From sequence record PQ666539: a stretch of 64,000 nt of DNA. One strand, 5' to 3'. Both the position numbers and the translations under genes were made by a program. Positions within the stretch are counted from its first letter, which is position 1. Each line of letters starts with the position of its first letter. Source of the stretch: Shigella phage sb1. The notes under the pieces are model-generated. The model ran no database searches, was not told where the DNA came from, and saw only the letters and a list, made by a program, of their open reading frames with translations. This document shows positions 46,507 to 48,771 of this stretch, in pieces.

Positions 46507-48771
46507 TCATAATTTACAGGATGAACAATCTTCAGCTTTTGGAATTTCTATTTCATAATCATCAGTACCAGAACCATCACGGGTATTATGATAATAGAAA
46601 TTTTTTCCGCCAAAATACCAAAAATACAAAAGGTCATCAATCATTATTGACATTGGAACCTTTCCTTTTGGAAAAATCTGCGGGTCATAATATGTATTCG
46701 CTGAAGCTGATTGACATACCCATTTCAGCATAATAGCTACCTGCGTAAGATAAGGTTTATTACCTTTCTTAGCTAATTTCCACGTATAATCATAGAGGTC
46801 TATGTTATGTTCAATATTGGGCACGACTTGATTAAAGGAACCCTCTTTTGATTCTTTAACAGAGACTGGTCCACGTGGAGGCTCGATACCGTTTGTACTG
46901 TTAGAAACTTGGGAAGATGACTCACATGGCATAAGTGCTGATAATGTGCTATTACGGATGCCAAAGAGCTTAAGGTCTTCCCGCAGCGCAGACCAGTCAC
47001 AAACGGATTTTGGAGCTGCGATTTGGTCAATCTTTTTATTGTACCAGTCGATAGGTAATTCGCCTCGAGACCATTTAGTGTCTGAATAATACTCGCAAGG
47101 TCCTTTTTCTTCGGCCAACTTGATTGATGCTCGGATAAGTCCATACTGTAGTCTCTCAAACAGTTCATGAGTTAAATCGTTTGCGTCTTCATAAGAAGCA
47201 AAGTTGCTTGCCAGCCATGCTGCGTAGTTAGTAACACCCACACCAAGGTTACGACGTTTCTTAGCTTTTTCTGCTTCAGGAACTGGATATCCTTGGTAGT
47301 CCAAAAGATTATCAAGAGCACGAACTTGGACTTCTGCCAATTCATTAATTTTATCTTGGTCTTGCCAATCAAAGTTATCTAAAACAAATGAAGATAATGT
47401 ACACAATCCAATTTCAGCATCAGGACTATTCACATCATTTGTTGGAATAGCAATTTCACAGCACAAGTTGCTCTGACGAATAGGCGCCTTTTCACGAATA
47501 AATGGAGTATATTTATTCGTATTATCTATGAACTGCACATAAATCCTTGCTGTTCCTGAGCGTTCAGTCATGAGCAATTCAAACAGTTCACGGGCTTTAA
47601 TACGCTTTTTACGAATATTAGGGTCTTTTTCTGCAGCTTCGTATAATTCACGGAAACGGTCTTGGTCTTTAAAATAAGAATAGTAAAGTTCGCCACCCAT
47701 TTCATGTGGACTGAACAAAGTAATGTAATCATTCTTTCCAAATCGTTCCATCATAAGGTCATTCAACTGGATTCCGTAGTCCATATGACGAATACGGTTC
47801 TCATCGACACCTTTGTTGTTTTTCAGAACGAGCAGATTTTCAACTTCCAAATGCCAAATAGGATAATAAGCAGTAGCAGCGCCGCCACGGATTCCACCTT
47901 GTGAGCATGATTTAACAGCAGTTTGGAAATGTTTCCAGAACGGAATAACACCGGTATGGCGTACTTCACCTGTGCCAATCTTAGAACCTTCGGCACGAAT
48001 CATACCAACGTTAATACCAATTCCAGCGCGTTTGGAGATATATTCAACAATTGAAGCGGAAGCCTTATTGATAGACTTTAATGAATCACCTGCTTCAATA
48101 ACAACGCATGAACTAAACTGCCGAGTTGGAGTACGGCAACCAGCCATAATAGGAGTTGGCAATGAAATCTGTCGAGTAGATACTGCTTCATAAAAACGAA
48201 TAACATGTTTTAATCTATCAACAGGTTCATCTTGATGCAATTCCATTCCAATAGTCATAAATGCAAACTGTGGAGTTTCATAAATTTGACCAGTGGTTTT
48301 ATCTTTAACTAGATATTTTTCTTTTAATTTCATCGCCCCGGAATAAGTAAATTCCATATCCCGTTCGTGTTTAATTTTTGATTCTAAAAATGTAATTTAT
48401 TATGCTGAGTATTTTGACAACAATTCAGGGTCATATTTACCTTCATTTACACAGTAATAAATATGGTCAATAAATGAACGTGGTTCATACTGCCCGTAAA
48501 CATGCTTACGAAGAGCGAACATTAAACAGCGTGCAGCTACGTACTGATAATCAGGCTCTTCAACTGAAATAGAATTCGCAGCAGCCTTAATGACAATAGT
48601 CTGAATGTCATCAGTGGTCATTACATCACGGAGATATGATTTAATATTTTCATATAATTCATAAGGATCTACAGATGTTCCTTCAGCTGCCCAAGATAAA
48701 ACTTTAATAATTTTTTGCGGGTCAAAGCTCTGAGAAACACCACTACTTTTGATAACATTAATTAATTGCAT
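46507..48771 (-). CDS. nrdA: Ribonucleotide reductase large subunit NrdA, interrupted by two consecutive in-frame TAA codons at 48397-48402
   Basis: 123-aa and 616-aa same-frame pieces; span 754 codons, the T4 NrdA length; ATP-cone N-terminus and catalytic core recognised. Confidence 0.9.

Follow-up and report, generated by a model that had tools for sequence, protein, structure and literature searches.

Tandem TAA codons in nrdA of the Shigella phage sb1 record belong to a window-wide, unselected G:C>T:A overlay of very probably non-biological origin

Results

nrdA of the sb1 record is interrupted by two adjacent in-frame stop codons

The DNA analyzed here, subsequently designated the window, is a stretch of 64,000 nt from the sequence record of Shigella phage sb1 (PQ666539). 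It represents a Tequatrovirus (T4-like) segment reaching from gp14 to gp37, which is colinear with phages pSs-1, KNP5 and Ec_YwIITB1 and with the sibling records sb2, sb3 and sb4. The closest match among more than 800 related records has an identity of only 95–97%, even in the conserved structural module. Gene nrdA, encoding the large subunit of class Ia ribonucleotide reductase, is interrupted in the window by two TAA codons in tandem (Table 1). The cause of these stops is a window-wide, unselected overlay of G:C>T:A transversions, which is not specific for nrdA and very probably non-biological.

The nrdA reading frame comprises 755 codons (754 sense codons), is colinear with T4-type NrdA and aligns with the T4 frame without gaps. 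As reported in the initial annotation, the two TAA codons are consecutive and in frame: TTATTA at positions 48397–48402 of the plus strand reads TAA TAA on the minus strand, and the translation runs through LLSKYSA into the two stops and continues with ITFLESKIKHERDMEF. The annotation had further proposed that two adjacent Glu codons were both converted. Alignment to T4 NrdA around residues 124–125 bears this out, as codons 124 and 125 are GAA GAA (E124 E125) in T4 (NC_000866), UGKSEcP2, pSs-1, sb2 and Ec_YwIITB1. Each stop results from a single G>T exchange in the first codon position of the coding strand, corresponding to C>A at plus-strand positions 48402 and 48399. Sense codons in reference genomes had been named as the observation that would contradict the claim; they were indeed found, but they are what a conversion of GAA codons predicts and do not refute it. 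The two pieces of 123 and 616 amino acids (aa) and the linker also add up to the length of T4 NrdA as had been calculated (123 + 2 + 13 + 616 = 754). No cause for the stops had been offered.

An identical copy of the 91-nt stretch surrounding TAATAA was present in none of 516 matching phage records, the best of which had 3 mismatches; thus, no matching record carries the tandem stop. An exact 35-mer around TAATAA had no match in viral contigs or metagenome contigs, and an exact-product look-up did not retrieve the 616-aa or the 123-aa fragment.

Pfam places the ATP-cone (PF03477; residues 4–89) on the 123-aa piece, while Ribonuc_red_lgN (PF00317) and Ribonuc_red_lgC (PF02867) are located on the 616-aa piece. 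An intact nrdA orthologue contains all three, in the order ATP-cone, all-alpha domain and ten-stranded barrel that is expected for a class Ia enzyme. The break (48357–48402, minus strand) falls within the linker that joins the ATP-cone to the all-alpha domain (residues 139–216). The 616-aa open reading frame (ORF) has its start at Met139, precisely where the Ribonuc_red_lgN match begins, a coincidence that could be mistaken for a domain split.

Compared with T4 NrdA (NP_049845), the window protein shares the 754 codons, colinearity, the three Pfam domains and identical flanks of the site (SKYSA-EE-ITFLESKIKHERDMEF in T4). It differs by TAA TAA in place of GAA GAA and by 8 missense changes of the G:C>T:A class, which occur in the window only. 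Since codons 124–125 prevent an uninterrupted full-length NrdA frame, nrdA as written in the record is a pseudogene. Window-only G:C>T:A changes in nrdA number 14, i.e. 2 nonsense, 8 missense (including G50V, S105Y, Q148K, A177E and A461S) and 4 synonymous. By contrast, 32 of the 42 window-only changes of other classes are synonymous and 10 are scored as missense, several of these being multi-base changes within one codon. Judged from these proportions, nrdA looks like a normally evolving, functional gene that is overlain by random damage.

In-frame stop codons are scattered over 23 genes of the window

For a census of stop codons, the gene frames of pSs-1 were mapped onto the window. This yielded 33 in-frame stops in 23 genes, comprising 26 TAA, 3 TAG and 4 TGA codons (Table 1). 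Outside nrdA, 31 stops affect 22 genes, among them essential ones. Several stops were found in gp17, gp22, gp27, alc and nrdA (2 each), in rnlA (3) and in gp34 (4), while single stops are present in gp16, gp18, gp23, uvsW.1, uvsY, gp51, gp29, gp48, alt, gp32, gp35, gp36 and four small genes. None occurs in the part of gp37 covered by the window (891 codons). At the 33 sites the relatives carry GAA (18), GGA (4), TCA (4), TAC (3), GAG (3) and TTA (1), i.e. codons for Glu, Gly, Ser, Tyr and Leu, and all stops except the one in gp23 are explained by single G:C>T:A transversions.

Clear frameshifts were not detected in the window, and the lengths of the pSs-1 gene frames are otherwise unchanged. 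Three small ORFs differ by 1–2 nt from pSs-1 (around 15056–15253, 185 versus 186; around 35840–36205, 367 versus 366; around 40614–40814, 130 versus 132). They are the sole candidates for frameshifts in the window, and the differences may be natural or reflect alignment effects. Stops in pseT and frd, which emerged when the census was based on the annotation of Ec_YwIITB1, proved to be artefacts of that reference frame and annotation: they vanished with the pSs-1 frames, and both genes are intact ORFs in the window.

Table 1. Positions of nrdA, its fragments and the in-frame stop codons in the window
Feature	Position (nt)	Strand	Basis or codon in relatives
nrdA, class Ia ribonucleotide reductase large subunit	46507..48771	-	translation; ~96% DNA identity to Tequatrovirus nrdA; Pfam; T4 colinearity
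TAA TAA, nrdA codons 124-125	48397..48402	-	GAA GAA in all relatives; codon-125 TAA also in sb4
N-terminal ORF fragment, 123 aa	48400..48771	-	holds ATP-cone, residues 4-89
C-terminal ORF fragment, 616 aa	46507..48357	-	starts at internal Met139; all-alpha and barrel domains
TAA, gp16 (terminase small subunit), codon 153	1858..1860	+	GAA
TGA, gp17 (terminase large subunit), codon 366	2975..2977	+	GGA
TAA, gp17, codon 528	3461..3463	+	GAA
TAA, gp18 (tail sheath), codon 128	4125..4127	+	GAA; common to sb2
TAA, gp22 (scaffold), codon 25	10042..10044	+	TCA
TAA, gp22, codon 115	10312..10314	+	GAA
TAA, gp23 (major capsid protein), codon 274	11617..11619	+	TTA; only stop not G:C>T:A
TAA, uvsW.1, codon 11	19075..19077	+	GAA
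TAA, uvsY, codon 8	20141..20143	-	GAA
TAA, gp51, codon 102	21609..21611	+	GAA
TGA, gp27, codon 194	22634..22636	+	GGA
TAA, gp27, codon 341	23075..23077	+	GAA
TGA, gp29, codon 65	23897..23899	+	GGA
TAA, gp48, codon 67	25684..25686	+	TAC
TAA, hypothetical gene, codon 93 of 96	27586..27588	-	TCA
TAG, alt, codon 178	29449..29451	-	GAG
TAA, hypothetical gene, codon 57	35336..35338	-	TAC
TAA, hypothetical gene, codon 22	39687..39689	-	GAA
TAA, Rz-like spanin gene, codon 29	43017..43019	-	GAA; common to sb4
TAG, alc, codon 135	43196..43198	-	GAG
TAG, alc, codon 73	43382..43384	-	GAG
TAA, rnlA, codon 374 (last sense codon)	43665..43667	-	TAC
TAA, rnlA, codon 183	44238..44240	-	GAA
TGA, rnlA, codon 132	44391..44393	-	GGA
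TAA, gene 32 (single-stranded DNA-binding protein), codon 9	53210..53212	-	GAA
TAA, gp34, codon 371	56717..56719	+	TCA
TAA, gp34, codon 394	56786..56788	+	GAA
TAA, gp34, codon 681	57647..57649	+	GAA
TAA, gp34, codon 1184/1185	59156..59158	+	GAA in most relatives; GAG in pSs-1
TAA, gp35, codon 209	60109..60111	+	GAA
TAA, gp36, codon 190	61230..61232	+	TCA

The G:C>T:A overlay is strand-symmetric and unselected

In direct comparison with Ec_YwIITB1, G>T and C>A differences in the window (95 and 93, respectively) clearly outnumber the reverse changes T>G and A>C (37 each). Changes were scored as private when seen in only one genome of the compared set, and sets with 4 or 6 relatives were used. 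In this way, 277 (4 relatives) or 263 (6 relatives) private G:C>T:A changes were assigned to the window, as compared to 14–20 in pSs-1, 30 in KNP5, 35–44 in sb2, 42–53 in Ec_YwIITB1 and 56 in sb3. Altogether, the window carries approximately 260–300 such changes, corresponding to a rate of about 1.3–1.4% of the G:C sites, and every 4-kb block is affected. The excess is confined to this class; all other classes in the window lie within or close to what is seen in the relatives, and are mostly synonymous. A dominant sequence-context motif for G>T was not observed and the influence of neighboring bases was limited, the rates ranging from 0.4 to 2.1% over the 16 trinucleotide contexts.

The private G:C>T:A changes in coding regions distribute to synonymous, missense and nonsense changes as 26/169/26, which is close to the random expectation of 15.9/176.4/28.6. 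In contrast, private transitions of the window are strongly purified (172/25/0 for A:T>G:C and 87/41/1 for G:C>A:T). This analysis was repeated with six relatives. The G:C>T:A rate amounts to 1.25–1.5% at codon positions 1 and 2 and to 1.43% in intergenic DNA; it is higher at position 3 (2.2–2.3%) because natural synonymous variation adds to it there. On the coding strand, G>T (1.51%) and C>A (1.57%) are equally frequent (p = 0.77). An overlay that is not subject to selection and breaks essential genes cannot belong to a replicating phage lineage.

The adjacent double stop is a by-product of the overlay

How readily such an overlay generates two stops side by side was addressed by simulations, in which 295 G:C>T:A changes were distributed randomly over the 21,677 G:C sites. 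On average, 29.8 nonsense codons were obtained per simulation, compared to 29 observed. The window offers 217 pairs of neighboring codons that are both convertible to stops, and at least one adjacent pair of stop codons arose in 4% of the simulations with uniform placement. The changes in the window are, however, not placed uniformly. Although pairs at a distance of up to 3 nt are about as frequent as expected (5 versus 4.1), pairs within 10 and within 30 nt exceed expectation approximately 1.4- to 1.9-fold (p about 0.005), and the counts are overdispersed in bins of 100–500 nt, roughly the size of library fragments. Owing to this clustering, the probability of an adjacent double stop is higher than the simulated value. 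In a conserved gene, two stops in a row do not occur simply by chance in the frame. As a by-product of the overlay, the tandem stop took only modest luck and calls for no separate explanation.

Sibling records carry overlays of their own and share tight clusters with the window

The window and its siblings originate from a study on four Shigella phages from lake water in Kolkata (PMC11993411), in which ADG1 corresponds to PQ666539, AKR2 to PQ666540 (sb2), CDR3 to PQ666541 (sb3) and TMC4 to PQ666542 (sb4). In sb4 (PQ666542.1) many genes are annotated as fragments, and the 64 kb homologous to the window contain 46 in-frame stops. There, synonymous, missense and nonsense changes again follow random expectation both for G:C>T:A (7/85/23 observed versus 8/92/15 expected) and for A:T>T:A (17/57/16 versus 18/64/8), i.e. 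both classes are unselected. sb4 resembles the window in belonging to the same clade (~96% identity) and in bearing an unselected G:C>T:A overlay. It differs by the additional A:T>T:A overlay (AAA>TAA, AAG>TAG), of which the window shows little or nothing, and most changes of the two are not shared. Its nrdA contains five stops (codons 3, 119, 125, 131 and 151).

Among the G:C>T:A sites, 280 are found in the window only, 164 in sb4 only and 15 in both, whereas independent random overlays would be expected to share about 2.4. The nrdA codon-125 TAA (48399) and Q148K (48330), which are 69 nt apart, are common to both, and so are three changes within 27 nt (43015, 43019 and 43042), one of which creates the TAA at codon 29 of the spanin gene. 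This combination of three is absent from the other approximately 300 records matching that stretch. The TAA at codon 128 of gp18 (4125) is in turn common to the window and sb2, which has 4 in-frame stops in the homologous 64 kb. Of all variants confined to two genomes, G:C>T:A accounts for 15/71 in the pair of window and sb4 and for 10/76 in that of window and sb2, as opposed to about 4% in clean pairs. The regional error densities of the window and sb4 are not correlated (Spearman ~0); sharing is therefore specific for sites or fragments rather than for regions. The tight clusters shared with sb4 or sb2 comprise three nonsense codons and were seen in no other phage record checked; they point to carry-over between co-sequenced libraries or to error hot spots. 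Several split genes (alt, gp34, nrdB, the major capsid protein gene and hoc) also appear in the annotations of sb3 and Ec_YwIITB1.

The published genome statistics are listed as 285 predicted proteins and the lowest guanine-plus-cytosine (GC) content of 35.16% for ADG1, 291 proteins and 35.35% for TMC4, and 254–255 proteins with 35.49–35.52% GC for the two cleaner genomes (PMC11993411). In the region studied here, the GC content increases from the window (35.84) to sb4 (36.01) and sb2 (36.11), paralleling the ranking of the whole genomes. Ten ordinary sense tRNAs are reported for each phage, and stop codons or pseudogenes are not mentioned (PMC11993411).

Neighboring genes and further features of the window

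The gene order nrdB, nrdA, nrdA.1, nrdA.2 and td is the same as in pSs-1 and T4; nrdA.1, nrdA.2 and td are located upstream and nrdB downstream of nrdA, as for T4 NrdA. Unlike in T4, nrdB (45277–46455) and td (49329–50201) are continuous in the window and lack group I introns as well as I-TevIII and I-TevI. Moreover, neither mobE nor nrdB.1 is present between nrdA and nrdB (46456–46506), and segG is missing between genes 32 and 59. Such differences are part of the ordinary variation of T4-like phages. Two alt-like ADP-ribosyltransferase genes of ~685 aa each are arranged in tandem (27925–32043, minus strand), an arrangement also present in pSs-1 and KNP5; the first of the two bears the TAG listed for alt. 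Between gp18 and gp19 an ORF of 218 aa with a TTG start (5724–6380, plus strand) is found, which is annotated as hypothetical in relatives and absent from this position in KNP5, and which might thus represent a mobile or accessory gene.

Discussion

In this work, we show that the two adjacent stop codons in nrdA of the sb1 record are due to two of approximately 300 G:C>T:A changes distributed over the whole window. A stop arises wherever such a change falls on GAA, GAG, GGA, TCA or TAC, and codons 124 and 125 of nrdA, both GAA, were both hit to give TAA TAA. We consider it very likely that this overlay is non-biological; its most likely source is the production of the sequence record. The pure C>A/G>T signature matches that of template damage of the 8-oxoguanine (8-oxoG) type. 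C>A/G>T changes arising from 8-oxoG during library preparation are a documented artefact (Costello et al. 2013, PMC3616734), to which the window is similar in the excess of G:C>T:A only, the absence of selection, the involvement of essential genes and the occurrence in several co-processed samples.

There are also differences. The published artefact was seen at low allele fraction in reads and followed acoustic shearing, whereas here the changes stand in the consensus of an assembly, and enzymatic fragmentation was employed in the source study. Read-orientation bias, the defining diagnostic of the artefact (PMC3616734), is a property of reads, while the window is known as assembled sequence alone. 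Since the oxidation artefact concerns a small fraction of reads, errors at the consensus level require few templates or reads per position. Damage might thus have been fixed in the consensus through a small number of independent templates, as in a library of low complexity generated by polymerase chain reaction (PCR). Conceivably, DNA containing glucosyl-hydroxymethylcytosine is a poor substrate and made the library poor in this sense, though this is a guess. Some fragments would then have been common to libraries processed together, giving rise to the shared error clusters. The clustering at the scale of fragments is consistent with a library of low complexity. The combination of oxidized templates and a low-complexity library is nonetheless a tentative proposal for the specific cause, to which we assign somewhat less than an even chance. 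An error of nanopore basecalling, or of calling modified bases such as glucosyl-hydroxymethylcytosine, was considered and rejected: insertions, deletions and frameshifts are nearly absent, and the source used Illumina sequencing (PMC11993411).

Several observations weigh against an artefact of record making. The source study describes extraction with cetyltrimethylammonium bromide (CTAB), PCR libraries made from 50 ng DNA by enzymatic fragmentation, sequencing on a NovaSeq 6000 and assembly with SKESA (PMC11993411), and deep Illumina data assembled in this way should outvote oxidation artefacts of low fraction. An extra condition must therefore be assumed, namely very low library complexity or depth, or carry-over across libraries; the depth is not stated in PMC11993411. 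Furthermore, errors common to isolates with separate names could likewise reflect mutational hot spots or DNA that the phages truly share, and a deliberately mutated test sequence would look similar, although it would leave the errors shared with sb4 and sb2 unexplained.

The latter possibility, alteration of the window in silico, for example as a simulated G:C>T:A test sequence, would account for an overlay that is remarkably uniform and consists of substitutions of one class only. We regard it as very improbable, because the overlay is clustered at fragment scale and the tight clusters are shared with the public records of sb4 and sb2, which have overlays of their own.

About equally improbable is oxidative hypermutation, either in vivo in a host with defective 8-oxoG repair or during storage of an oxidized lysate consisting mostly of dead particles. 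The signature matches 8-oxoG (PMC3616734), and presence in the consensus would be easier to understand if the templates themselves were altered. Extrapolation from 33 stops per 64 kb gives approximately 85 nonsense codons per genome, however, which is incompatible with replication, so the mutations were not fixed by growth. The missense and nonsense proportions do not reveal selection either. Lesions in stored DNA vary from molecule to molecule and need a template bottleneck to reach the consensus, by which the storage variant becomes the artefact under another name. That the changes are physically present in most molecules of the preparation, through massive 8-oxoG-type hypermutation with segments shared between co-isolated phages, appears slightly less probable still. 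Physical hypermutation and in-silico alteration are both less parsimonious than an artefact of record making.

Genuine inactivation of nrdA, through natural pseudogenization where the host provides its own reductase or through an engineered tandem-stop knockout, has even less in its favor and is very unlikely. The nrd genes of T4 are non-essential in the laboratory, TAATAA is a typical engineer's insert and the remainder of nrdA is intact. A knockout of a single gene should leave the genome otherwise intact, though, whereas 31 more stops are spread over 22 other genes, many of them essential (gp17, gp18, gp23, gp32), and nearly all are G:C>T:A. nrdA itself also has the 8 window-only missense changes of this class, the flanks of the site are identical to those of relatives without any cassette or scar, and one of the two stops recurs in sb4 with its five nrdA stops.

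Recoding of stop codons is known in some phage groups, and reassignment or suppression, by which TAA and other stops are read as sense, would be in line with many in-frame stops in genes that are otherwise intact and conserved and free of frameshifts. Recoded phages share this feature with the window, but they use one stop type, which is under selection and matched by a suppressor tRNA. In the window, all three stop types occur in frame and replace five amino acids at conserved positions rather than one type standing for one amino acid, the number of nonsense codons equals the random expectation and about 160 missense changes of the same class are equally unselected. Early and late genes are both affected, and at the same codons hundreds of close relatives follow the standard code. 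The 64-kb window contains no tRNA gene, the T4-type tRNA cluster being located outside of it, and the ten tRNAs listed in PMC11993411 are ordinary and do not include a suppressor. We therefore consider reassignment extremely unlikely.

It is just as implausible that NrdA is truly split into an independent ATP-cone protein and a catalytic body restarting at Met139: the break does fall into the linker between the domains and the downstream ORF does start at the first residue of the all-alpha match, but Met139 and its upstream sequence are unchanged from relatives with a continuous gene, hence there is no adaptation to translational restart, the split is absent from all 516 matching records, and the stops belong to a random overlay that breaks nrdA of sb4 at other, additional codons.

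Taken together, the tandem TAA in nrdA does not represent recoding, programmed readthrough or a split reductase in biological terms, and the value of the finding is that of a flag for data quality. The window and sb4, and to a slight extent sb2, carry unselected G:C>T:A errors at about 1% of the G:C sites, which mimic pseudogenes or recoding. These errors fragment dozens of genes, inflate the numbers of predicted proteins, lower the GC content and add approximately 0.5% spurious divergence. Comparative analyses of these T4-like phages, as well as scans for codon usage, novel small ORFs and stop-codon recoding that include these records, will give false signals.

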